From an uncultured Candidatus Bathyarchaeia archaeon (GTDB lineage Archaea; Thermoproteota; CALKCG01; B24; JAWCPE01): DNA of 64,000 bases. The position numbers and the translations under genes were made by a program. Under the pieces are notes generated by a model that saw nothing but the letters and a program-made list of their open reading frames with translations, ran no database searches and was not told the DNA's origin. Shown one piece after another: positions 28,402-44,508 of this stretch; the stretch's first letter is position 1; each line of letters starts with the position of its first letter. Location: assembly GCA_964427455.1 (NCBI GenBank), contig CAYRUY010000001.1, positions 87,726-151,725 on the forward strand, given 5' to 3'.

Positions 28402-29808
28402 CTACGGTGTAGTTGCGCGTTTTCTCCTCGAGGCAACAAAGTAGACTGTGGCCGCAACGATGACCGCAGCTCCGAAGACTACGGGCAGCCTCACGTAGAG
28501 CAGGTCTTCGGGGAACTTCGAAAGCGTGGTCGTCGCCAGCTCGGCGCCGATGGCTACGGTTGGGTCATGCCTCAAGGAGTTCCCAAATTTGGGTACGCTG
28601 ACTTGGTGGGCGAAGGCGATGCGATACCTGACAGGTCTGCCTTCGACATCCGTGATGATACCGGTCGCGTAAAGGCCTTCGGGTACGACCACGGGCGTTG
28701 ACAGCAGAAAGACAGGTTGTATGGCTGTGCTTACGGCGTTATCTACGCGCGTGCCGTCTACCATGGCCTCAGGTGTGTATGATACGAAGGCTTTGGCCGC
28801 CGTCATGGCTTTCCCGGAGACAAGGACAATGGGTTCCTTTGCCGTCAGCGTCACGTTGAAAGCCTGGAATTCCTTGCCACCGAGCCTGACTGCCACGGGC
28901 TCAGAGCTGTGGTAAAGGATGGTGGAGATCATGGCGAGGCGCAGGTTCTTTGCCTCGGACCAGCTGGAGTTGGCGAAGCTCATGTCGAGTTTGAGTTCGG
29001 GGTTCTCGGGCAGAAGCTTCACGTGGTAGCCCAACATGACATCGATCCATTCAACACTTCGGTGCACGTGTTCTCCCCCTTCGGTCCCTTGGCTGTGTCT
29101 CCATAGTATGGAAGGGACCTTGGCCGAGATGTTCCAAGAGAACTCCTGAACCAGTGTCTCGTCCACTGTGATGTTCCTGCTGGCGAGCGCTGTGACAGTC
29201 CACTGCCACTGGTCCTCGTTGTACACCATATGAAACATGGGTGCAAGTGGGAAGATGCTGTAGGGTCTGTCTCTGAGGTTATCCCAATCGATCTCGTTCT
29301 CCTCTACCTCGTCGTTATGCTCCCTGTTGCCTCTTGTCCAGAGGTCGAAGAGGCCATTGTTATCCGAGTCATTGTACTGCATCAGGAAGAGCGGCGTGTA
29401 GGTAATACTTGTCTCCAGGCTTCCGTTTCCGCTGTACCTGGCCATGTGAAGTATCGGTGACGTGTCCACGAAGAGTAGGCCTGTGAACCCCCTAAGGTGC
29501 CATGTGATCAGACGCTGCCAGATGAAAAGGAACTCGACGCGGCCGCCGTCGGTTGTGTTCACGGTGATGCTGTACTTCGAATATGTGGAGCTGTCTCTGA
29601 AGGCCCGCGCTTCCTCAATGATGGCTCTGGCTACGGCTCTCCTCGGAGTGGCACGTGCAGACGATGCTAGGGGCAACACAAGCAAGAAGACCATCGAGGC
29701 GACCGCTAGGCGATTCGGCCCCCTTGTTCTCTCAGCCTTCCGTCTAGCCCGTAGCAACAAAACATGGTGTTGCTGTTGGCTGCGGGCTCGGCTTTCCAGG
29801 ATTCTCAT
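28402..29808 (-). CDS. hypothetical secreted protein with C-terminal TM anchor
   Basis: Signal peptide (MVFLLVLPLASSARA), 468 aa, C-terminal TM plus RRKR. No family recognised. Confidence 0.35.
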   Translation of the reverse strand: MRILESRARSQQQHHVLLLRARRKAERTRGPNRLAVASMVFLLVLPLASSARATPRRAVARAIIEEARAFRDSSTYSKYSITVNTTDGGRVEFLFIWQRLITWHLRGFTGLLFVDTSPILHMARYSGNGSLETSITYTPLFLMQYNDSDNNGLFDLWTRGNREHNDEVEENEIDWDNLRDRPYSIFPLAPMFHMVYNEDQWQWTVTALASRNITVDETLVQEFSWNISAKVPSILWRHSQGTEGGEHVHRSVEWIDVMLGYHVKLLPENPELKLDMSFANSSWSEAKNLRLAMISTILYHSSEPVAVRLGGKEFQAFNVTLTAKEPIVLVSGKAMTAAKAFVSYTPEAMVDGTRVDNAVSTAIQPVFLLSTPVVVPEGLYATGIITDVEGRPVRYRIAFAHQVSVPKFGNSLRHDPTVAIGAELATTTLSKFPEDLLYVRLPVVFGAAVIVAATVYFVASRRKRATTP

Positions 29809-31596: not shown

Positions 31597-32388
31597 TCAG
31601 AAGAGAAGGTCCAGATACCCGCTCAGTTTCTTCGCGGGCCCACTTGGCTTTCGTTGAAGTACCTCAGCGCACCTCTTCGGGCTCAGCCTCTTGAACTCCA
31701 GGTGCAGGTCTCTCAGCAAAGCCTCGGCTTCCTTCGAGATGCTTGGCGCCGCGAGGATGCCTCTAGCCTCGGGGCTGCTCACCCTCATGCTCTTCATGTA
31801 CTGGGCTAACTGCTTCACGGCCGACCTGTCGCCCCTCGTTCGCTTGATCTCCACTATCGTAAGGCGGCCCTGTTGGTCCCTTCCGACGCAGTCGACGAAG
31901 CCTGAGGGTACCTGTTTCTCAGCGGCGACGGGGCGAAACCCATCCTCTACGAGGCTAGGCTCAAGCAGGATGGCTGCCTTCATGTCCTCCTCCGAAGCGT
32001 AGAGCGCGAATGCTCCACGGTCTTCAAGCCCTAGCACGGAGACCAGTCGGAGCCCCCTGAACTCTACGGCAACCCTCTCCTTGGGCCTAGGTCTCATCGC
32101 CTCAATCGTCAACACGCCTCCGGGGCTCAGGCTCGCTTTGAAACGGCAACCGGGCGGCTGCCAGTTGACGGGTTCAACACCCCTAGGTCTGTGGAGAAGC
32201 AGCGAACCGTCGCCCTTAACGATGAGAAGCCTTTCACCTAAGCCCAGCTTCGAGGAGGCCCGTCCCGTGTACTCTACAGTGCATGGGCCAACGATCAGGA
32301 CGAGGCTTCGGCTTGATAGCCCCCATGCCACTTCTTGGAGGGCTTCTTGGGCCTCGGGGCTCGTAATGACCAGACTGCGCCGCTTCAT
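31597..32388 (-). CDS. nucS: endonuclease NucS/EndoMS
   Basis: The N-terminal domain (LLIVKGDGSLLLHRP...PVNWQPPG) and the C-terminal RecB-like nuclease motifs (D...EIK...QLAQY) match NucS. Confidence 0.65.
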   Translation of the reverse strand: MKRRSLVITSPEAQEALQEVAWGLSSRSLVLIVGPCTVEYTGRASSKLGLGERLLIVKGDGSLLLHRPRGVEPVNWQPPGCRFKASLSPGGVLTIEAMRPRPKERVAVEFRGLRLVSVLGLEDRGAFALYASEEDMKAAILLEPSLVEDGFRPVAAEKQVPSGFVDCVGRDQQGRLTIVEIKRTRGDRSAVKQLAQYMKSMRVSSPEARGILAAPSISKEAEALLRDLHLEFKRLSPKRCAEVLQRKPSGPAKKLSGYLDLLF

Positions 32389-32620: not shown

Positions 32621-33172
32621 GTGGAGAAGGAAAACGCAATAGTTGCAATGATGCTTGTGCTGCTCTCCGGAATCATACTTCTGGCAATATCTCCACCAAC
32701 GGCCAGCTCTGCTCAATCGCCTAAACCTCCGCCTCCTGCCGGGCATGAAGAGTACCTCTCAAGCCTACCTCCACGCCCTAGAGAGGCTTCCGATAAGATC
32801 GATGAGCACCATGATGAGATTCCGGGTCTCGTCCTATGGGGTGTAGACAGGACCGATATGACGCTCTTGGTAGGCGTGGAGAATGTTACCTCGCAGGTAG
32901 AGGAGATAGTCAAGCAGATCGTTGGCCCTGATGTGCCTGTAGGGGTCGTGGAAGCGCGCAACCAGCTCGACACTCTTCAGCAGCCAGAACTTCAGGAGGT
33001 AGTAAGCCCTATCGAGATAGGCATTAGGGAACCCGACCCTAGTGAGCTTCAGCCGGGGAAACTCGCTGACTATGCCCATTACGCCATGCTTCCTACAATG
33101 CTTCTAGGAGGGGACACCTTGGCTTGGTGGGTGATCCTGTGCGTCGTCGTGATGTGGAGGGTGTTCGCGTAA
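32621..33172 (+). CDS. hypothetical membrane/secreted protein
   Basis: N-terminal TM/signal and C-terminal TM. First of three contiguous same-strand ORFs of unknown function. Confidence 0.3.
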   Translation: MEKENAIVAMMLVLLSGIILLAISPPTASSAQSPKPPPPAGHEEYLSSLPPRPREASDKIDEHHDEIPGLVLWGVDRTDMTLLVGVENVTSQVEEIVKQIVGPDVPVGVVEARNQLDTLQQPELQEVVSPIEIGIREPDPSELQPGKLADYAHYAMLPTMLLGGDTLAWWVILCVVVMWRVFA

Positions 33173-33597
33173 TGGTGGATGATAGATATGGGAAGAGGAT
33201 ATTTCTGAAGCACAGGCTGGCCGTTGGCGTACTCGTGGGCCTAGCGGTTGTCCTGTTTTCAGGGCTGTTCTATGCGCTCTGCCTGTTAACTCCGAGAATA
33301 TCGTATGGCCCGTGGCCGGAGGTTCATACCATTCCTTCCGTACCTTCTGCGGTTCCCGTATCTTCTGCAGTTCGCATTCCGGAAGGGGGGTTTGTGGAGC
33401 CCCCACCTGAGCCTCCGTTCGGTCCGACAGTAACCTCTGAAGAAGCCGACGCGGCCCTTGGCCTCGCAGTGGTGTTGTTCCTCGCATTCATGGGGATAGG
33501 ATTTGCGTTGTGGTGGGCTGGGGGGTACTCTAAAGAAACGATCGTCTCCCTGAAGCCGCTCTGCGAGATCCCTGACAACGAAGACCGCGGATCATGA
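33124..33597 (+). CDS. hypothetical membrane protein
   Basis: Two predicted TM helices and a Pro-rich loop. Start uncertain. Confidence 0.3.
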   Translation: MVGDPVRRRDVEGVRVMVDDRYGKRIFLKHRLAVGVLVGLAVVLFSGLFYALCLLTPRISYGPWPEVHTIPSVPSAVPVSSAVRIPEGGFVEPPPEPPFGPTVTSEEADAALGLAVVLFLAFMGIGFALWWAGGYSKETIVSLKPLCEIPDNEDRGS

Positions 33598-34241
33598 GTT
33601 CCATGATAGCTAGGAAGATTGTTGCCGTATTCCTGGTGTTGGCTCTCGCAACTCTTGCATATCTGCAGTGGGCCTATAGCCACATCAACATTAACGTAGG
33701 CAGCTTCAGGTATGGTGGCAGGGAGGAGGGAGAGACGGGCATCGTAAGAACCTCTCCCCCTCCACACGTCTCATCCCCCGGTACTTCTTCGTTCAAGAGG
33801 TACTCGCTGGCTAAGGGAGTCGAGGAAATTGCACGGGTTTGGGGTAGGGCTCCGCCGCTGCCCAAGTGGCTTCCGGACAACATGACGTATGCCGAGGCCT
33901 ACACAGAGCCAGCAGCCATAGTATGCTACAGCGACAGGCCGGTTGAAGACTTCAGGTTCGCTAACGTAACCATCGAGATACACCTTCAGGGTCCGAGCGA
34001 GGAGGAACTCAAGCAGGAAGTCGAGAACAGTCCGTATCTGAAGCTGGTAAAGGCAGGCGATGTCTGGGTTGTGATGAACGAGAAGGCGCATTCTGGCTGG
34101 ATCGAAGAGGAGGAGGCGTTCGGCCCATCGCCCCTAGCGTGGTTCAGCAAAGATGGATTCTACTACATGGTCGGCGTTCACGCTCCACTAACACCCCAGG
34201 ACTTGGTAAAGGTCATAGAGAGCATGAAGCCTCCAAGCTGA
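33594..34241 (+). CDS. hypothetical secreted protein
   Basis: N-terminal TM/signal. Overlaps the previous ORF by 4 nt (operon-like). Confidence 0.3.
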   Translation: MSSMIARKIVAVFLVLALATLAYLQWAYSHININVGSFRYGGREEGETGIVRTSPPPHVSSPGTSSFKRYSLAKGVEEIARVWGRAPPLPKWLPDNMTYAEAYTEPAAIVCYSDRPVEDFRFANVTIEIHLQGPSEEELKQEVENSPYLKLVKAGDVWVVMNEKAHSGWIEEEEAFGPSPLAWFSKDGFYYMVGVHAPLTPQDLVKVIESMKPPS

Positions 34242-34403: not shown

Positions 34404-34832
34404 CTATTCACCGATTATCTGGAGCACAAGCTCTCGCTTCCGGCTGTGAACGTCGAGTTCGATGAACGCGATCTGTTGCCACGTGCCGAGAGCTAACCGC
34501 TTGTCGTTGAAGGGCACCGTAAGACTCGCGCCTAGCAGCGAAGCCCTGATGTGCGAGTGCCCGTTCCCGTCATGCCACGCCTCGTCGTGCGCGTACGGGA
34601 TTGCTCGAGGAACGAGCCTATCAAGCATCGCCTTAAGGTCCTTCTTGAGCCCTCCCTCAAACTCGACCGTAGCTAGGGCGCCCGTGCTCCCAGCCACAAA
34701 GACGGTCACGATTCCGTCACTGAGGCCGGAGGCTCTAACTGCCTCAGCTACGTCGCCTGTGATGTCTCTTGTGTCCAAGGAGTCGCGTTCCCCCAGCGTA
34801 GAGAACTGCAAGCGCCTAGAGACAACCTTCAC
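34404..34832 (-). CDS. yjbQ: YjbQ-family (UPF0047) secondary thiamine-phosphate synthase-like enzyme
   Basis: Full-length match to the YjbQ pattern (ITGDV...VTVFVAGSTGALATVEFE...HDEAWHDGNGHSHIRASLLG). Confidence 0.8.
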   Translation of the reverse strand: MKVVSRRLQFSTLGERDSLDTRDITGDVAEAVRASGLSDGIVTVFVAGSTGALATVEFEGGLKKDLKAMLDRLVPRAIPYAHDEAWHDGNGHSHIRASLLGASLTVPFNDKRLALGTWQQIAFIELDVHSRKRELVLQIIGE

Positions 34833-35112: not shown

Positions 35113-38100
35113 GTGCCCTCGCCGTCGAGTTGCCGCTGGCTTCCGGACGATACGACAGAGCGCTTACCTTGGAGGCTGAGAGAGACCTTGTTTACGCCAG
35201 TAGGGTCAGAGGTTGACTTCCCAAAGCTTGAACACCGCATCCTTAGGCTCTGGGCCGAGGTCGACGCCTTCAACCGGCGAAGGGCCTTGAACGAAGCGAA
35301 GCCGCGGTGGTCCTTCATAGACGGCCCGATCACGGCCAACAACCCTATGGGCGTCCACCACGCCTGGGGCCGGACCTACAAGGACCTCTTCCAGAGGTAC
35401 CGGGCTATGAGGGGCTTCCAGCTCCGGTACCAGAACGGCTTCGACTGCCAAGGCCTCTGGATCGAGGTTGAGCTCGAGAAGGAGCTGGGCTTCAAGTCGA
35501 AGAAGGAGATAGAACAATACGGCGTCGCGGAGTTTGTGAAACGGTGTAAGCAACGCGTTCTCCAATTCGCCGCCAAGCAGGTTGAGCAATCGGTTCGACT
35601 CGGCTACTGGATGGACTGGGATGACCCCAAGCTCCTCAGGGAACTCGCCGAGAAACTTGACACACCCGAGGAAACGGTCACGGTTCGAGGACCCTCCGGC
35701 GGCCGCCTCTCAGGCACCGTCGAACAGGTTGTCGGCCAGCTGGGCACGCCTGGGTTCGGCGGCTCCTACTTCACCTTCTCCGACGAGAACAACTACAGCA
35801 TCTGGGCTGCGTTGAAGAAATGCCATGAGCGGGGATGGATCCGAAAGGGGAGGGACGTGATGCCCTGGTGCCCCCGCTGCTCCACTGCGCTCTCGGAGCA
35901 CGAGATCGCGACTGAGGGCTATCGTGAATTGACCCACCTCGGGCTGACCGTCAGGTTCCCCTTAAGAGAAAGGCCTGGCGAGTCGCTGCTCGTCTGGACA
36001 ACTACGCCCTGGACTCTGACGTCCAACGTCGCCGTGGCGGTCCACCCCGACATCGCGTACGTGAGAGTCCGTGCAAACGGTGAAGCCCTAATACTGGCTA
36101 AGGCCGGGCTCCAGCGAACGATCACCGGGGAGTACCGAGTGCTCGAAGAGGTCGACGGCATGAGCCTTCAAGGCCTGACCTACGACGGGCCTTACGACGA
36201 GCTCCCAGCGGTCAAGAACGAGAAGGCTGCTGAAGCGCATCGTGTGGTGCTCTGGGACCAAGTGAGCGAGTCTGAGGGAACGGGCATCGTACACATAGCT
36301 CCTGGGTGTGGGAAGGAGGACTTTCAGCTCGGGTTGGAGAACGGCCTTCCCGTCGTCGCACCATTGGACGACTTCGGCGTCTTCACCGACGGTTTCGCGT
36401 GGTTGACGGGCAAGCACGCGTACGATGTTGCTCAGCCGATCGTGGACGACCTCCGCGGAAGAGGCCTGCTCTTCAAGGTGGAGAGCTACACGCACCGATA
36501 CCCGGTCTGCTGGCGATGCGAGAGCGAACTCGTCTTCAGGCTTGTCGATGAATGGTTCATCCACATGGGCGAGAAGCTTGACAAACCGCTTGAAGAGTTG
36601 ACCGAGCAGGAGAAGACTAGGAATCTGCGCTATCAGATCATGGAGTCCGCTAAGCAGGTACGTTGGATTCCAGGCTTTGGCCTCCAGCAGGAGCTTGACT
36701 GGCTGCGCAACATGGGAGACTGGATGATCTCGAAGAAGCGTTACTGGGGGCTGGCCCTACCCATCTGGGAATGCTCTCAATGCGGCGGATTCGACGTTAT
36801 CGGCAGCGAGGACGAGCTTCACGCACGCGCAGTTGAAGGCTGGGAGAGCTTCGAAGGACACACGCCTCACAGGCCCTGGATCGATGCTGTTCGTATCAGA
36901 TGCTCAAGATGCGGAGCTGTCGTGTCGCGGATACCGGATGTGGGAAACCCCTGGCTCGACGCAGGGATCGTCGCCTACTCAACCCTCGACTATAGACACA
37001 ACCGGGAGCTATGGGCGAAGTGGTTCCCCGCAGACCTAATCTGCGAGTCGCTCCCGGGCCAGTTCCGCAACTGGTTCTACTCGATGCTAGCTATGAGCAC
37101 GATCCTTGAGAAACGGACGCCCTTCCTAACCTGTTTCGGCCATGGCAGTGTGCTCGCCGAGGACGGCCGTGAGATGCACAAGTCCTGGGGGAACGCGATC
37201 TGGTTTGACGACGCCGTTGAGACGATGGGCGCCGACGTGATGCGTTGCCTGTACTGTTCAAGCGAGCACGAGGAGGACCTGCTTTTCGGCTACAAGAGAG
37301 CCGACGAGGTTAAGCGTAGGTTCTTGCTTCCCCTCTGGAACGTCTACAGCTTCTTCGTCACTTACGCGAACCTTGACGACTGGAAGCCAGGCTCAGAGCC
37401 GGTGGAACTGACCCTCCTCGACCGTTGGGTACTGGCCAAACTCCAAGTGCTCATCCAACACGTAACGGAGAGCCTCGAGAGCTACGATGTACGGTCCGCG
37501 ACGATCAGCGTGGAGAGATTTGTGGAAGAGCTCTCTACCTGGTACGTGCGGCGATCACGCCGGAGATTCTGGAAGAGCGAAGCCAGCATGGACAAGAACG
37601 CGGGCTACGCCACGCTCCACCGCTGCCTCACCACGCTTGCAGCGCTGCTCGCGCCATTCACGCCCTTCCTAAGCGAGGAGATCTACCGGAACCTAGTATG
37701 CAACGTGAGACCTGAGGCCCCAGAGAGCGTGCACCTGAACGATTGGCCTCTCCCGGATAAAGGGCTGGTCGACGAGAAACTCCTAGCTGACATGGATCTC
37801 GGCATCAAGGTCAGTAGCCTAGGACGTGCCGCCCGGAACAAGGCGGGCATAAGGCTTCGCCAACCCTTGGCAAGGGCTCTGATAGCCGCCCCGCCTGAGA
37901 CAACAGCCCGCCTCCAGCGACTGGCCGAGACAGTCAGGGAGGAACTCAACGTCAAGGAGCTGGGCTTCGCGGACCCGAAGGCGATCGTGACCTACGAGGT
38001 GAGGCTGCGACCTGAGGTGTTAGGCCCGAAGCATGGTGCGCTCCTGCCAGAGATCCGAGCCGCGGTCGCAGGGGTCGACCCGGACTCATTGGCCTCCATG

Positions 38101-38529
38101 TTGCAGAAGGGCGTAGAAGTAACCCTAGAGGTGGCGGGGCGAGCAGTCACATTGCTCCCTGAGGAGGTAGAGATCAAGACACATCCCAGAGCTGGATACG
38201 CCGTAGCCGAGGAAGACGGGATCATCATCGGCGTACACGCCCAAGTCTCGGAGGAGCTCAGGATAGAAGGTTTAGCCAGGGACATAGTGCGCAGGATACA
38301 GGACCAACGGAGGGAGGCCGGGTACAACATCGCAGATACTATCCGGATCTGCTACGAGGCGGGACCGAAGCTCTCAAGGGTCTTCGCATCTTGGGGGAGC
38401 TACATAGCAGCTGAGACGTTGGCGGTCAGCATCGAGAAGTCTGAACCGCCCTCTGGCAGCCATACGGCCGCCTTCGAACTCGACGGGGAAACGCTCAAGA
38501 TCGGCCTGATCCGGCAGACTCACGCTTAG
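35113..38529 (+). CDS. ileS: isoleucyl-tRNA synthetase-like class I aaRS with non-canonical catalytic signatures
   Basis: IleRS hallmarks: EVDFPKLE N-terminus, GWD-like FDCQGLWIE, editing-domain WTTTPWTLTSN, zinc knuckles. HxGH is replaced by GVHH and KMSKS by EMHKS. The likely true start is TTG at 35188, preceded by GGAGG. Confidence 0.7.
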   Translation: MPSPSSCRWLPDDTTERLPWRLRETLFTPVGSEVDFPKLEHRILRLWAEVDAFNRRRALNEAKPRWSFIDGPITANNPMGVHHAWGRTYKDLFQRYRAMRGFQLRYQNGFDCQGLWIEVELEKELGFKSKKEIEQYGVAEFVKRCKQRVLQFAAKQVEQSVRLGYWMDWDDPKLLRELAEKLDTPEETVTVRGPSGGRLSGTVEQVVGQLGTPGFGGSYFTFSDENNYSIWAALKKCHERGWIRKGRDVMPWCPRCSTALSEHEIATEGYRELTHLGLTVRFPLRERPGESLLVWTTTPWTLTSNVAVAVHPDIAYVRVRANGEALILAKAGLQRTITGEYRVLEEVDGMSLQGLTYDGPYDELPAVKNEKAAEAHRVVLWDQVSESEGTGIVHIAPGCGKEDFQLGLENGLPVVAPLDDFGVFTDGFAWLTGKHAYDVAQPIVDDLRGRGLLFKVESYTHRYPVCWRCESELVFRLVDEWFIHMGEKLDKPLEELTEQEKTRNLRYQIMESAKQVRWIPGFGLQQELDWLRNMGDWMISKKRYWGLALPIWECSQCGGFDVIGSEDELHARAVEGWESFEGHTPHRPWIDAVRIRCSRCGAVVSRIPDVGNPWLDAGIVAYSTLDYRHNRELWAKWFPADLICESLPGQFRNWFYSMLAMSTILEKRTPFLTCFGHGSVLAEDGREMHKSWGNAIWFDDAVETMGADVMRCLYCSSEHEEDLLFGYKRADEVKRRFLLPLWNVYSFFVTYANLDDWKPGSEPVELTLLDRWVLAKLQVLIQHVTESLESYDVRSATISVERFVEELSTWYVRRSRRRFWKSEASMDKNAGYATLHRCLTTLAALLAPFTPFLSEEIYRNLVCNVRPEAPESVHLNDWPLPDKGLVDEKLLADMDLGIKVSSLGRAARNKAGIRLRQPLARALIAAPPETTARLQRLAETVREELNVKELGFADPKAIVTYEVRLRPEVLGPKHGALLPEIRAAVAGVDPDSLASMLQKGVEVTLEVAGRAVTLLPEEVEIKTHPRAGYAVAEEDGIIIGVHAQVSEELRIEGLARDIVRRIQDQRREAGYNIADTIRICYEAGPKLSRVFASWGSYIAAETLAVSIEKSEPPSGSHTAAFELDGETLKIGLIRQTHA

Positions 38530-38548: not shown

Positions 38549-40207
38549 TCAAGGCGGCAGGAGTTCGTCCCCATCGATTGCGACATCGATGACCGCCGAA
38601 GAGCCTCCGCGAACCGCAGCCGCAGCTCTTTCCAACGCGCCACGTATCTGGCCGGGTTTCTCGACGCGCTCCCCATAGCAGCCGTACGCTTCGGCCAGCC
38701 TCACGAAGTCTGGGTTAACAAGGTCAGTCGAGATGAATCGGCCTCCGAAATCCGTCCGCTGCTGATGCTTAATCGTTCCAAGAGCTTGGTCGTCCATGAT
38801 GCAGACTGTCAAAGCGATTCCCTCCTGAGCTGCGGTCGCTAACTCATACATGGTCATGACGAAGCCCCCGTCGCCCGTTACCGCCACAACCTCACTATCT
38901 TCCTTGGCCAGTTTGCAGGCTATGGCTGCGGGAAGCGCGTAGCCCATCGGTCCGAACGCGCCTGATTGGATCCAGGTCCTAGGCCTATAGATGTCGAGGA
39001 ATGTGGCTGCCCACATCTTGTTGTTCCCCGCATCCATCGTGAAGACTGTCTCCGGGGCGTATAAACGTCTGAGCTCAAGGCATAGCCTCTGAGGCTTGAT
39101 CGGCGCCAGTTCTAGGCTAACGAGTTCGGCACAGTGAGAGGACCATTCGGCCTTTGCTCTGCTCAGCTCGCTGAGCTGATGCGATGAGCCAAGGGTTCTA
39201 GGCGGAGTCAGGGTCTGGACTTCGGCGAGTAGGTCGCTGAGGATGCCCGCAGCATCTCCAACGATCCCGAGGGCTACAGGGCAGTTTCTCCCGATCTCCT
39301 CCGGGTCCACATCGGCCTGTATCAGGTTGACGCCGGGCCTCACTGCCCTCCAATGCCTTGTGCTCAACGATGAGAACCGGCAGCCCACGCTGAGGATCAC
39401 GTCTGCGCTCTCCAGCAGCCGGTCTGTGTAACGTCTTGCGTGGACCCCCATCCTTCCCCCTGAGAGTTCATGGTCCTCAGGAACGACACCTCGCCCGTTG
39501 AACGTTGTAACGATCGGGGCCGCCAGATGCTCAGCAAGAGCCATCACCTCCTGGATGGCTCCTCCCCCTGCATAATGCGCGCCGCCGCCTGCGATGATGA
39601 CTGGGTTCACGGCTTTGACGAGCAGTGAGGCAGCGCGGGCGGCGACGCTGGCAGCCGCCCTGCTAGGGCGGGAAGGCAGGTAGCTCTCAAGCGCGGTCTG
39701 CTCGAACTCGACCTGTTGCCGCTGGACCTCGACGGGAAGGTCCACGTGAACAGGGCCAGGCCTCCCCGTCACCGCCTTCACGAGGGCCCTCCTAACCGTA
39801 GCAGCTGCGCTACTCGCCTGAACCACTTGGATGCTCTCTTTCACGACAGGTCTGAAGAGCGCAACATGGTCGAGCTGCTGGAAGCCGCCTTTATCCCTCT
39901 CAGCTAGCGGCTGTTGGCCTGTCAGGGCGAGGACAGGGCTTCGATCCGTCCAAGCCGTTGCGACGCCTGTGAGGAGATTCGTAGCGCCAGGGCCTCCCGT
40001 GCCATCGCAGACACCAACGGAACCGGTGAACTTCGCGTAGGCATCTGCCATGTACGCGGCAGCTTGCTCATGCCTCGTCAAAACATGTCTCACGCGTGAC
40101 CCGTAGAGCGCATCATAAAACGGAGCGGTCTGTGACCCAGGCAGCCCGAAGACCAGGCGAACCCCTGAAACCTCCAGCGTCCTCACAACAGCCTCGGCAG
40201 CGTTCAT
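38549..40207 (-). CDS. thiamine-pyrophosphate enzyme, acetolactate-synthase large-subunit-like
   Basis: Three-domain TPP enzyme pattern (N-terminal Pyr domain GLPGSQTAPFYDALY, C-terminal GDGGF...TPP-binding motif). Confidence 0.75.
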   Translation of the reverse strand: MNAAEAVVRTLEVSGVRLVFGLPGSQTAPFYDALYGSRVRHVLTRHEQAAAYMADAYAKFTGSVGVCDGTGGPGATNLLTGVATAWTDRSPVLALTGQQPLAERDKGGFQQLDHVALFRPVVKESIQVVQASSAAATVRRALVKAVTGRPGPVHVDLPVEVQRQQVEFEQTALESYLPSRPSRAAASVAARAASLLVKAVNPVIIAGGGAHYAGGGAIQEVMALAEHLAAPIVTTFNGRGVVPEDHELSGGRMGVHARRYTDRLLESADVILSVGCRFSSLSTRHWRAVRPGVNLIQADVDPEEIGRNCPVALGIVGDAAGILSDLLAEVQTLTPPRTLGSSHQLSELSRAKAEWSSHCAELVSLELAPIKPQRLCLELRRLYAPETVFTMDAGNNKMWAATFLDIYRPRTWIQSGAFGPMGYALPAAIACKLAKEDSEVVAVTGDGGFVMTMYELATAAQEGIALTVCIMDDQALGTIKHQQRTDFGGRFISTDLVNPDFVRLAEAYGCYGERVEKPGQIRGALERAAAAVRGGSSAVIDVAIDGDELLPP

Positions 40208-40711: not shown

Positions 40712-41944
40712 CTACCTCAAGATGCCGTAGCCTATGAGCCTCCATCGTTCTCCTATTCTTCGGCTGATCGCCACCCTTTGGCCTTCCATCGCGCAGACGG
40801 CACGCTTGAGAGGGACGACCACATGGTCCTTCTTCGAACTGCTCACGAGACCTGATGTCACCGTGGTTGCAGCGTTGAGAAGCAGGGGTTCACCGAGCTT
40901 AATCGGGTCGACCTTCACCAAGTCAGTTGTGCCCACCGCTATGTCGAATAGCGTCACGTCCAGGTCCAGCTGAGACCTTACTTCAGGCAGCGAACCTGGC
41001 TTTCCGAGGAGATTTCCGACCAACTTGTCGGCCTTCGTGATACTCGGGTCGAGTCTTGTCCCAACCCCGACGAGGCCTCCAGGCATTGCCCTCTCAACGC
41101 CCCGGTTTCCATAGTGGAGGCTCACGACAGTGGTGAAGAGTGGCTCGTACACCCCCTTTTTCTCAACCCTCATGCCCGGCCGAATCTCGATCTCATCACC
41201 TATGCCCAGAGCCCCTTCGACCATCGAACCTCCAAGGACGCCGCCGACGAGGCTAGAGGGCTTCGTGCCAGGCTTGTTTACGTCGAATGAGCGGACGACC
41301 AGCATTCTTGCAGGCTTCGCTGGGTCACGGCTTGGTGTTGGGATCTCTCTCTCCAAAGCCTCGATTAGGTACCCTATGTTCGTTCCGTGTTGAGCCGAGA
41401 CTGGAATGATCGGCGCGTCCGCAGCTATCGTGCCCTTCGTGAAGCTAATGATCTGTTGATAGTTAGCCTCGGCTGCCTGACGGTTTACGATGTCGATCTT
41501 GTTCTGGACGATGACTAGGTCCTTCAAGCCCATTATCTCTACGGCGGCCAGATGCTCCCTTGTCTGCGGCTGAGGGCACGGTTCATCGGCCGCGATCACA
41601 AGGATAGCTCCGTCCATCACGGCGGCGCCGCAGAGCATCGTAGCCATCAGTATCTCATGGCCGGGAGCATCGACGAAGCTCACGGTTCTAAGGAGTTCCG
41701 CATCACCGCCGCAACTCGGGCAGGTGGCCTTTACTGAGTAACATTCAGGAGGCGGGCAAGCAGGGCATTTGTAGAAACTCGCATCTGCGTAGCCCAGCTT
41801 GATCGTGACGCCTCTTCGAAGCTCCTCGCTGTGTCTGCTCGCCCAAACACCTGTCAGGCTCTCGACGAGCGTCGTCTTCCCATGGTCTACATGACCGACA
41901 GTGCCAATGTTCGCTTCAGGAGGCTTCGGTGGCACAACCGTCAT
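40712..41944 (-). CDS. eif2g: translation initiation factor 2 subunit gamma (aIF2-gamma)
   Basis: [13 protein letters not shown], zinc ribbon [10 protein letters not shown]...CPSCGG, full-length EF-Tu-like architecture. Confidence 0.9.
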   Translation of the reverse strand: [410 protein letters not shown]

Positions 41945-42671: not shown

Positions 42672-44508
42672 CTAGAGACCCCAGAGAGGATTAGCCTTTC
42701 TGTAGATCTCGACTGTCTCTTGGAGGACTTCTCGTTCATCTGGGCTTAGGAGGGAGGCGAACCTCTCGATAAGTGCCTTTGCGTGTCTCTCCGGGACCTG
42801 GACGTAGAGCGTCTCTCCCTCGTTTACCTGCCTTCCCACGGTCGGGCCCTCAAGCGAGATGGCGACCTCCATTCCGCTAATGGCCTCTGGGATGTTCTTT
42901 CCCTGTTCTTGGATCTGGAGGATCGTGCCAACTTCCTCTCCGTCAGCGTTCATCACGGGCCACTTGGGCTTCACCTTTCCAGCCAGAACCTCAACGCCCA
43001 CGATCGCGGGTTTGCTTCGCCTGAACACGTACCCTGGGATTACCCGGACCTTGCCTGGGATAACCAGCTCCTCAAGAGCCTCTCTGAGCCGTCTCTCTTC
43101 CTCGCTCTTCATCCACTCCGTGTAGACGTCCAAGAGCTGGTATATGATGTCATGCTTGAAGATCCTCACCTCGCCTGCAGATTCCTTCTCGGCGTCAGGC
43201 AGCACCCTCACGTTGAAGGCGAGGATCGCCCCGTAGATGGGGTTAGTGCGACCGACCACCTGCGCCTCGACCACATCTCGCTTGGAGACATCGCCTATGT
43301 CCGCCATCCTCACCGGGATGCCTCGGTTGTCAAGCTCACCCTTCAGAGCCTCCAGGGAGCCTAGCGTGTCAGCCTTGAGAACGACGCCTATGCGGTCAGT
43401 TATGATCCTGAACCTGTTGATCTCCTCAACCACCTCCACCTCGTATGCCTCAGGCGGCATCCCTGGGGGTACGCCATACAGTGGCGAGCCCGCTAGGGCC
43501 TCCTCGAGCCCGGGCGCCACTATCTTCACTCCCGCCGCCGCAGTGACCGTGTCCACGGGGGTGAAGCCTCCTGAGGGAGCCCTCATCTCTTCCAGGGGTT
43601 TCGGGGCGAGGAGAGCTCTGACTCTGACCGCAAGTGGCCCGTTCTTGCCTGCTAGGACGACGGTGTCGCCCTCCTTGAGGACCCCGTCATAGATGATGGT
43701 GTTCAACGTCGTGCCCAGGCCGGGTTCCTCCTTCACCTCTAGAACCGCGCCTCTCGCTGGGCCTTCTGTGGCCTTCAACCGGTCCTTCATGTAGTGCTGT
43801 GTCAGCCCCAGTAGGACGGCTAGCAGGTCTGGGATGCCTTCCCCGGTCTTAGCGCTGACTGGGACGATCGCCACGGTTCGCGAGAAGTCTCTGACCCTGT
43901 CGAGCCTGTCCGACCTGAAGCCTACACGTGAGAGGTCGCCTATGATCCGATACAGCCTCTCGTCTAGGCTCCTCTGGACGTCCTGCTGTTGGCGCTGAAG
44001 GGAACTCAAGACCGGCTCGGCTGGGTGAGCGCTCCAACCCGGTATCAGGTCGATCTTGTTCGCCGCCACGAGAAAAGGGGTCTTCCTTGCCTTCAGCAGT
44101 TCGATAGACTCGTAGGTCTGGGCCTCGACGCCCTTGTTGGCGTCAACGACGAGTATGGCGATGTCTGCGACTGAGCCCCCTCTCATCCTTAGGTTCAGGA
44201 AGGAGCTGTGGCCCGGCGTGTCGATGATGAGGAGCCCGGGGACAGTGATCTCCCATTTGAACTGCTCCAACATGGGTGCGCATACGGCCTTCAACGCGTC
44301 CGCTGGGAAGAAGCTCGCGCCAATATGCTGGGTTAGAGACCGTGCGAGTTCTCGCTCGCAGCGAACATCTCCCCAGGCTCCTTCAGAGCGATGGCGGTCC
44401 CGCGGATCTTGTCCAGCAGCGTTGTCTTGCCGTGGTCTACCTAGCCTAGGCCGGGATGCCCGGCTTCAAATGGCCTAGAACCACGGCAATAGGCTGTCTT
44501 AAGTACAT
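42672..44508 (-). CDS. infB: translation initiation factor aIF5B (IF-2 homologue), coding sequence interrupted by two short inserts
   Basis: The largest ORF (42672-44294) encodes residues from LTQHIGAS onward. The P-loop segment [24 protein letters not shown] is in another frame at 44369-44440. The N-terminus MYLRQPIAVVLGH is at 44470-44508 behind GGAGGAGG and a TTATTAAA box. Removing 29 nt and 32 nt restores one 591-aa frame collinear with aIF5B. Confidence 0.8.
44337..44368 (-). other. candidate BHB-type pre-mRNA mini-intron 2 in infB (32 nt)
   Basis: AUGUUCGCUGCGAGCGAGAACUCGCACGGUCU (boundary +/-1) sits between KEPGE and (I/L)TQHIGA. It holds a GCGAG/CUCGC hairpin. Length is not a multiple of 3. 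Confidence 0.5.
44441..44469 (-). other. candidate BHB-type pre-mRNA mini-intron 1 in infB (29 nt)
   Basis: UUGAAGCCGGGCAUCCCGGCCUAGGCUAG sits between codons GH and VDHGKT. It holds an internal CCGGG/CCCGG hairpin, and its GGCCUAG can pair with the exon-1 end CUAGGCC. Length is not a multiple of 3. Confidence 0.5.

Follow-up and report, generated by a model that had tools for sequence, protein, structure and literature searches.

Two short signatures, HIGH and KMSKS, define all class I aminoacyl-tRNA synthetases. Among isoleucyl-tRNA synthetases (IleRS), many bacterial enzymes of type 2 (IleRS2) naturally have [A/G]XHH instead of HXGH at the first of these signatures (Brkic et al. 2023, Nat Commun, PMC10485003). 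Such enzymes act as housekeeping synthetases, exemplified by the ALHH enzyme of D. radiodurans, for which kcat is 45 s-1 and the Ki for mupirocin 6.6 mM. With the HIGH swap, the Ki for mupirocin reaches millimolar values (hyper-resistance), the rise from GxHH alone being about 200- to 800-fold. Type-1 IleRS cannot tolerate the swap, whose discovery its authors called a major surprise (PMC10485003). A 2026 preprint splits the family into IleRS1, IleRS2 (bacteria, archaea and the eukaryotic cytoplasm) and a deeply placed archaeal branch, IleRS-A, with [A/G]XHH restricted to IleRS2 and not found in IleRS-A (10.64898/2026.02.03.703510). Neither study discusses variation of KMSKS. Here we describe an ileS gene in a 64-kb stretch of contig CAYRUY010000001.1 from an uncultured Candidatus Bathyarchaeia archaeon (the window, 64,000 nucleotides), to be annotated as plain ileS, in which both signatures and two further active-site motifs are replaced. 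The product is very probably a functional housekeeping IleRS of a Bathyarchaeia-type (Thermoproteota) archaeon whose ATP site has been rewired.

A preliminary description of this DNA had placed GVHH at the HIGH position and EMHKS at the KMSKS position, and gapless HMMER alignment to solved IleRS structures bears this out. GVHH (residues 55–58, codons GGC GTC CAC CAC) aligns onto the HVGH of T. thermophilus IleRS and P. megaterium IleRS2, and in an AlphaFold2 (AF2) model the helix begins at residue 56. The top PDB match, 8C8W, is P. megaterium IleRS2 with GVHH engineered into it, and the two proteins are therefore identical at the HIGH motif. EMHKS (residues 662–666, codons GAG ATG CAC AAG TCC) follows Arg661, and G-R-E-M-H-K-S-W-G-N pairs in every column, without a gap, with G-Q-K-M-S-K-S-K-G-N. 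Relative to KMSKS, the first lysine (Lys1) is replaced by Glu and the serine at position 3 by His, while Met, the second Lys and the final Ser are retained. These structure alignments, together with a pattern scan, exclude that a shifted register conceals a canonical motif: H.GH is present nowhere in the protein, neither H.G[HTN] nor a KMSKS of the K[MLIF]S[KR] type is present elsewhere in the catalytic domain, and ..HH occurs once in that domain, namely as GVHH. Neither signature has a canonical copy elsewhere in the protein.

The remodeling is wider than these two signatures, to which the preliminary description had limited it. GFDCQGLW stands in for the canonical GWD[CT]HGLP; the Asp that binds the isoleucine amino group is retained, while His is changed to Gln and Pro to Trp. 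The ribose motif E-G-x-D-Q-T-R-G-W-F is represented by ESLPGQFRNWF, which has lost the Asp that contacts the ribose 2'-OH and gained one residue, with Glu, Gln and Trp retained. The structure of C. albicans IleRS shows the ribose O3' and O2' bound by the Glu, Gly and Asp of E-G-x-D-Q (PMC7191050). The preliminary description had also overlooked a 42-aa insertion that falls between the first Rossmann half and CP1 and is predicted to form a helix, a beta-hairpin and a second helix, with a predicted local distance difference test score (pLDDT) of 80–93 in the AF2 model. The ATP-site residues that remain are the fourth His of HIGH, Glu620, Gln625, Trp629, Met663, Lys665 and Ser666.

These states are conserved across a broad set of relatives. 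Two alignments were used, one of 54 Bathyarchaeia homologs (64–79% identity) and one of 74 sequences obtained by adding 37 Chloroflexota homologs (54–58%). In the latter, His57, His58, Met663 and His664 are found in 74/74 sequences and Gly55 in 72/74; position 665 is Lys in 71 and Arg in three. Position 662, that of Lys1, is Glu in 52, Pro in 14, Gln in four, Ala in three and Gly in one, never Lys or Arg, and the residue before it is Arg in 62/74. Within the ribose motif, Glu620, Gly624, Gln625, Phe626, Arg627, Trp629 and Phe630 are invariant (74/74). Among the best 120 matches in 5.8 billion proteins (64–100% identical), 119 carry [G/A/M]xHH, the remaining one being truncated, and xMH[KR] is present in every protein that covers the loop. 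A scan of GTDB, with one genome per species, identified more than 593 genomes with an enzyme of this type. In the best 80 of them (53–67% identity, full length), [G/A]xHH occupies the HIGH position in all 77 loci that cover the site, a PGQ-type ribose motif is present in 80/80, and the insertion is 41–43 aa long in 80/80; xMH[KR] was also found in 80/80, a figure biased upward because EMHKSWGN was among the search patterns.

Outside the ATP site, the protein has the features of a complete IleRS. The editing-domain signature and zinc knuckles had been described as intact, and both are present: the editing residues Thr271–Thr273, His369 and Asp378 and all eight zinc cysteines, in the four CxxC pairs CPRC, CWRC, CSQC and CSRC, are invariant in the 54- and 74-sequence alignments. 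The isoleucine pocket of T. thermophilus IleRS consists of Pro46, Asp85, Trp518, Gln554 and Trp558 (numbering of Nakama et al. 2001). The residues aligned to it, Pro47, Asp86, Trp520, Gln625 and Trp629, are present and invariant in both alignments. Given this invariance of the pocket and of CP1, no change is expected in isoleucine recognition or in editing.

Family assignment gave the same identity. The product scores 712.1 bits against TIGR00392, the NCBIfam ileS equivalog (cut-off 621.4), and below the cut-offs of the ValRS, LeuRS and MetRS models. Assignment to the acquired mupirocin-resistance enzymes MupA/MupB was rejected, as their exception models (NF000257 / NF000258) require 1900 bits and the product reaches 566 and 542. 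Its Pfam domains are tRNA-synt_1, Anticodon_1 and DUF5915; the C-terminus is of type 2, and the zinc-binding C-terminus of IleRS1 is absent. The best solved relatives by HMMER are P. megaterium IleRS2 and T. thermophilus IleRS (E about 1e-194), and isolated T. thermophilus editing-domain structures align to residues 269–464 of the 1138-aa open reading frame (ORF). An AF2 model that drew on only the 54 Bathyarchaeia sequences could not be used (pLDDT 66, and below 50 in the catalytic core), which the Chloroflexota homologs remedied: the model from the 74-sequence alignment has a pLDDT of 87.7 and a predicted template modelling score (pTM) of 0.83. It superposes over its full length on P. megaterium IleRS2, with template modelling scores (TM) of 0.78/0.83, and on T. 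thermophilus IleRS (1ILE) with a TM of 0.90 normalised to the target and 39% identity in the structural alignment. P. megaterium IleRS2, yeast IleRS and T. thermophilus IleRS rank ahead of type-1 IleRS and ValRS in the structural comparison.

We compared the motifs across IleRS groups by searching 1.84 billion cluster representatives with phmmer and aligning the best 150 together with the window protein and four Bathyarchaeia homologs (155 sequences). Group A, which holds the window protein, combines MGVHHAWG at the HIGH position with a ribose motif of the form E-[SC]-[LF]-P-G-Q-F-[RK]-N-W-F and an xMHKS loop. Group B combines GVHHAWG with E-M-R-E-Q-V-R-L-W-F and x[FM][SH]K[ST]. Group C, the classical non-canonical IleRS2, has PG[IV]HH, and group D, the canonical IleRS2, has HxGH, both with DQTRGWF and KMSKS. 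IleRS-A has HxGT-AWN and DQTRGWF with a KMSKS, xMSKS or xMHKS loop. Groups A and B share GFDCQGLW for GWD[CT]HGLP and GP[IV]TAN for GPPxAN. Only some members of group A have the insertion, which the remaining IleRS groups lack, and its length is kept in Bathyarchaeia, Chloroflexota, Poribacteria, Thorarchaeota and one Magnetococcales protein. Lys1 of KMSKS is kept in 66/67 sequences with a DQ ribose motif and HxGH or xxHH, in 0/29 with PGQ and in 3/25 with xEQ, while the second lysine persists throughout this set. The motif states thus co-vary across the groups, which indicates that the ATP site was rebuilt as a package and not by two isolated substitutions. Lys1 is also missing in 13 of the 20 HxGT-type (archaeal IleRS-A-like) representatives.

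Several IleRS-A-type enzymes that have HxG[TN] and DQTRGWF nevertheless carry an xMHKS loop: REMHKS in a Thermoprotei MAG (metagenome-assembled genome) and RQMHKS in Ca. Sysuiplasma. Other archaeal IleRS-A-type loops read PMSKS and AMSKS, the deviant-loop set comprising P0175, P0190, P0208, P0215, P0219, P0230 and P0246. Since IleRS-A-type enzymes carry such loops, Lys1 appears widely dispensable in archaeal IleRS. To treat both substituted residues as indispensable is an overstatement: the HIGH swap is a known variant, Lys1 is missing in most IleRS-A-like representatives as counted above, and in the ternary complex of E. coli LeuRS it is the second KMSKS lysine that touches the phosphate, while the first touches C75 of the tRNA (PMC5059758). 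Loss of Lys1 need not abolish activation, because in LeuRS the phosphate contact is made by the second lysine and not the first.

With respect to its placement, the window protein scores 1048 and 1046 bits against profiles of IleRS2 groups and about 100 bits lower (950) against IleRS-A, whereas a rough neighbour-joining (NJ) tree sets the GVHHAWG clade beside IleRS-A sequences. We tentatively assign it to a large, deep-branching type-2 (IleRS2-like) sub-clade that spans archaea and bacteria. The named proteins among the best 120 are nearly all Bathyarchaeia or Bathyarchaeota IleRS, with a few Thermoproteota or Nitrososphaeria labels. The best 80 GTDB loci, which include closed chromosomes and represent each assembly once, come from Bathyarchaeia, Brockarchaeota, Thorarchaeota, Chloroflexota, Poribacteria and Eiseniibacteriota, with a few MAGs labelled Nitrososphaerota. 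Closed chromosomes with this type include CP070659.1 and CP070826.1 of Bathyarchaeota, CP070761.1 of Thorarchaeota and OZ242354.1 of Poribacteria. Many of them are Chloroflexota (Anaerolineae, Caldilineae, Chloroflexia and Ca. Amarolinea). Further representatives of groups A and B are found in Magnetococcales, Gemmatimonadota, Bacillota and DPANN. In another rough NJ tree, Bathyarchaeia form one clade, sister to a Chloroflexota/Poribacteria clade that encloses Thorarchaeota; nesting across domains implies transfer between archaea and bacteria, while the coherence of the Bathyarchaeia genes suggests long vertical inheritance within that lineage. The nested Thorarchaeota loci are L076 and L078. 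Two loci from MAGs labelled Chloroflexota (L016 and L021) fall in the Bathyarchaeia clade, either through inter-domain transfer or through mis-binning.

Loops that lack the first lysine and retain the M-S-K core are found in E. coli GlnRS (VMSKR) and in ArgRS variants, so some class I active sites can do without it; these enzymes belong to other subclasses and have no HIGH swap. Compared with the window protein, the characterized [A/G]XHH IleRS2 (D. radiodurans ALHH, Streptomyces griseus; 8C8W) share the swap of HIGH positions 1 and 3 and a C-terminal domain of type 2. They retain E-[AG]-x-D-Q-T-R-G-W-F, GWD[CT]HGLP and KMSKS, in contrast to PGQFRNWF, GFDCQGLW, EMHKS and the 42-aa insertion here, and the published work on them concerns bacteria, whereas the window protein is archaeal. 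T. thermophilus IleRS has the editing motifs, zinc knuckles, pocket residues and signature flanks in common with the window protein, but its four ATP-site motifs are all canonical and it lacks the insertion. IleRS-A enzymes (e.g., Methanothermobacter) share the archaeal host, the type-2 C-terminus and the 'AW' after the HIGH position; many members lack Lys1, and some in Thermoprotei and Thermoplasmata have the identical R-E-M-H-K-S loop. Unlike the window protein, IleRS-A retains His1 and Gly3 of HIGH and DQTRGWF. AgnB2 LeuRS (KQSKS) of Agrobacterium radiobacter K84 is an active class Ia enzyme with an altered loop and resistance to an adenylate mimic; it differs in being leucine-specific, in having only the Met replaced and in being the second copy, carried on a plasmid, of an organism that produces an antibiotic (PMC5059758). 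Because [A/G]XHH has been published for IleRS2 (PMC10485003), the GVHH half of the present finding is an already known natural variant. The xMHKS loop, the loss of the ribose Asp and the co-variation of both with GVHH appear to be previously undescribed; the supplements of PMC10485003, when searched, contained no MHKS, GVHHAWG or Bathyarchaeota strings.

Based on these comparisons, we propose a plausible arrangement of the active site. HxGH would have been exchanged for GVHH, the ribose motif for E-S-[LF]-P-G-Q-F-R-N-W-F, GWDxHGLP for GFDCQGLW and KMSKS for xMHKS, as one package. Isoleucine would be bound by the conserved Pro47, Asp86, Trp520, Gln625 and Trp629. ATP would be held by the fourth His of HIGH, the relocated third-position His, Glu620 and the Met-x-Lys-Ser of the mobile loop, in which the second lysine may contact the phosphate, as in related class Ia enzymes. 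Mischarged Val-tRNAIle would be cleared by the intact CP1 editing site. We speculate that the lost residues are compensated for by two histidines, both new and invariant, and by the Arg that often occupies position −1 of the loop. By analogy with the characterized GxHH IleRS2, the enzyme is predicted to be active, to perform an ATP step somewhat weaker or slower than that of canonical enzymes, and to have strong intrinsic resistance to mupirocin-like adenylate mimics.

Several points weigh against a fully functional, sole housekeeping enzyme. Neither the loss of the ribose Asp nor the reversed charge in the mobile loop (Lys to Glu) is trivial, and a canonical IleRS2 engineered to carry GVHH had a 4- to 10-fold lower kcat and a higher Km (PMC10485003). 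Full-text searches gave no paper with 'EMHKS' or with 'MHKS' and 'tRNA synthetase' together, and no assay of any enzyme with the xMHKS or PGQ states was found in the searchable literature. All relatives found derive from MAGs, and a search for a cultured host, seeded with a Caldilineae (Chloroflexota) homolog, returned MAG proteins only. Thorarchaeota, considered at phylum level, hold both this type and the canonical HVGH/KMSKS type (the P0204 cluster), so coexistence in some genomes is possible.

A further reading, which we regard as tentative, is that the combination of GVHHAWG, PGQFRNWF (or REQVRLWF) and xMHKS marks a distinct, uncharacterized type of IleRS catalytic core, whose four ATP-site elements co-evolved for an alternative mode of ATP binding and of stabilization of the transition state in adenylation. 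The His at position 3 of HIGH, the His at position 3 of KMSKS and the shifted −1 Arg would then stand in for His1, Lys1 and the ribose Asp. If so, Bathyarchaeia, much of Chloroflexota and Poribacteria would be intrinsically insensitive to adenylate-mimic antibiotics, which would also explain why the gene crossed the boundary between archaea and bacteria more than once.

It is less probable, and on balance we consider it unlikely, that the gene is a horizontally spread, inhibitor-resistant IleRS, kept or acquired to exclude natural IleRS inhibitors, be they mupirocin-like or other Ile-AMP mimics, and maybe present beside a canonical copy, a possibility compatible with activity. The effect of GxHH alone on the mupirocin Ki (PMC10485003) and the precedent of AgnB2 LeuRS, in which a change in the KMSKS loop is a known route to self-immunity (PMC5059758), are in keeping with such a role, as are the cross-domain topology of the NJ tree and the canonical IleRS type that Thorarchaeota also own. 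However, the Bathyarchaeia genes form a single coherent, deep clade at 64–79% identity, as expected of vertical housekeeping inheritance. The GC content of ileS equals that of the rest of the window, with no compositional anomaly, and the flanks hold translation factors, NucS and a thiamine pyrophosphate (TPP) enzyme rather than mobile elements or a biosynthetic cluster. The MupA/MupB models are far from reaching their cut-offs, and the preprint authors argue that the HUP-1/HUP-2 split is older than mupirocin (10.64898/2026.02.03.703510).

The preliminary description had left the choice between a divergent but active enzyme and a catalytically impaired paralogue. The first is strongly favoured by the lineage-wide conservation, the intact editing and tRNA-binding parts, the passing of the ileS cut-off and the GxHH precedent (PMC10485003). 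That the protein is instead a pseudo-synthetase that has lost aminoacylation and is retained for another role, for instance to edit Val-tRNAIle in trans, to bind tRNA or to act in regulation, with the charging left to a canonical IleRS encoded elsewhere, is very improbable, even though His1 of HIGH, Lys1 of KMSKS and the ribose-binding Asp are all replaced. Conservation is complete or almost complete at the replaced positions as well (His57, His58, Met663, His664, Gly624 and Gln625, in 74 sequences down to 54% identity), which is not expected of a dead active site, and the isoleucine-pocket residues and the position of the second KMSKS lysine are conserved. Enzymes with GxHH are proven to be active (PMC10485003). 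Each assembly among the best 80 GTDB loci gave one IleRS-like match, and organisms with two IleRS are described in the literature as rare. As a weak negative, no Bathyarchaeia label was present among 20 representative clusters of IleRS-A or canonical type looked up by name, whose labels were Thermoplasmata, Thermoprotei, Altiarchaeota, Micrarchaeota, Thorarchaeota and unnamed archaea. Across its 64 kb the window holds one IleRS-like gene. We infer that it encodes the sole IleRS of its genome. Finally, an error of sequencing or assembly, or a frameshift, at the codons of the motifs is rejected as next to impossible, as the same states recur in 120 protein clusters and 80 genome assemblies, all of them independent, conversion of GVHH to HVGH requires four nucleotide changes, and the ORF is intact across 1113 codons.

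For synthetase enzymologists, the xMHKS loop, the lost ribose Asp and their co-variation with GVHH are of moderate interest. With the second signature and the ribose motif altered alongside GxHH, the enzyme would represent a natural experiment on how far a class I ATP site can be rebuilt and still function. Sediment archaea and Chloroflexota, both abundant, are predicted to be intrinsically resistant to antibiotics that target IleRS. The gene also carries a warning that motif checks alone are insufficient to label such genes pseudo-synthetases.

The gene lies in an unbroken ORF at 35113..38529 (+) of 1138 aa that opens at GTG 35113. We took ileS to begin 25 codons inside it, at TTG 35188, because the NCBI protein P0001 (100% identical, 1113 aa) and other homologs begin there and GGAGG sits 13 nt upstream; the 25 codons at 35113–35187 are probably not translated. 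Coordinates of the gene, its motifs and domains, and its neighbours are listed in the table.

Table. Features of the ileS gene and its surroundings, in window coordinates.
Feature	Position	Strand	Basis or remark
ileS gene, 1113 aa + stop	35188..38529	+	start choice from homologs; TIGR00392
GVHH at the HIGH (HxGH) position, N-terminus of helix alpha1	35350..35361	+	alignment to 1ILE and 8C8W
GFDCQGLW, for canonical GWD[CT]HGLP	35437..35460	+	motif comparison by group; invariant 74/74
42-aa insertion LLRELAEKLD...GTPGF, residues 149-190	35632..35757	+	break between HMMER domains
CPRC, zinc knuckle 1, first half	35869..35880	+	C228, C231 invariant
WTTTPWTL, threonine-rich CP1 editing motif	35995..36018	+	invariant in homologs
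GTGIVHIAPGCGKED, second editing-site motif with His369, Asp378	36277..36321	+	both residues invariant
CWRC, zinc knuckle 1, second half	36508..36519	+	invariant
CSQC ... CSRC, second zinc-binding pair, CP2/second Rossmann half	36772..36912	+	C529, C532, C572, C575 invariant
ESLPGQFRNWF, for E-G-x-D-Q-T-R-G-W-F	37045..37077	+	alignments
EMHKS in the KMSKS loop	37171..37185	+	alignment to solved IleRS
Anticodon-binding domain, PF08264	37420..37869	+	Pfam E = 5.6e-31
Type-2 C-terminal tRNA-binding domain, DUF5915 (PF19302) = ARD2/ARD3	37927..38508	+	Pfam E = 1.3e-41
Endonuclease NucS	31597-32388	-	ileS neighbour
UPF0047 protein	34404-34832	-	ileS neighbour
TPP-dependent enzyme, acetolactate-synthase-like	38549-40207	-	converges on ileS, 20 nt past its stop
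aIF2-gamma	40712-41944	-	ileS neighbour
aIF5B	42672-44294	-	ileS neighbour

None of the window neighbours of ileS is kept beside it in the 80 related GTDB loci, and synteny is therefore uninformative on vertical versus horizontal descent. Searches for Rfam families and tRNA genes across the window found none, and promoter-like and terminator-like sites around ileS were no more numerous than in shuffled sequence. Three ORFs near ileS have no Pfam match at E <= 1e-5: 33594-34241 (+, 215 aa), 32621-33172 (+, 183 aa) and 28402-29808 (-, 468 aa). The archaeal core genes around ileS (aIF2-gamma, aIF5B and NucS) mark the window as archaeal chromosome.

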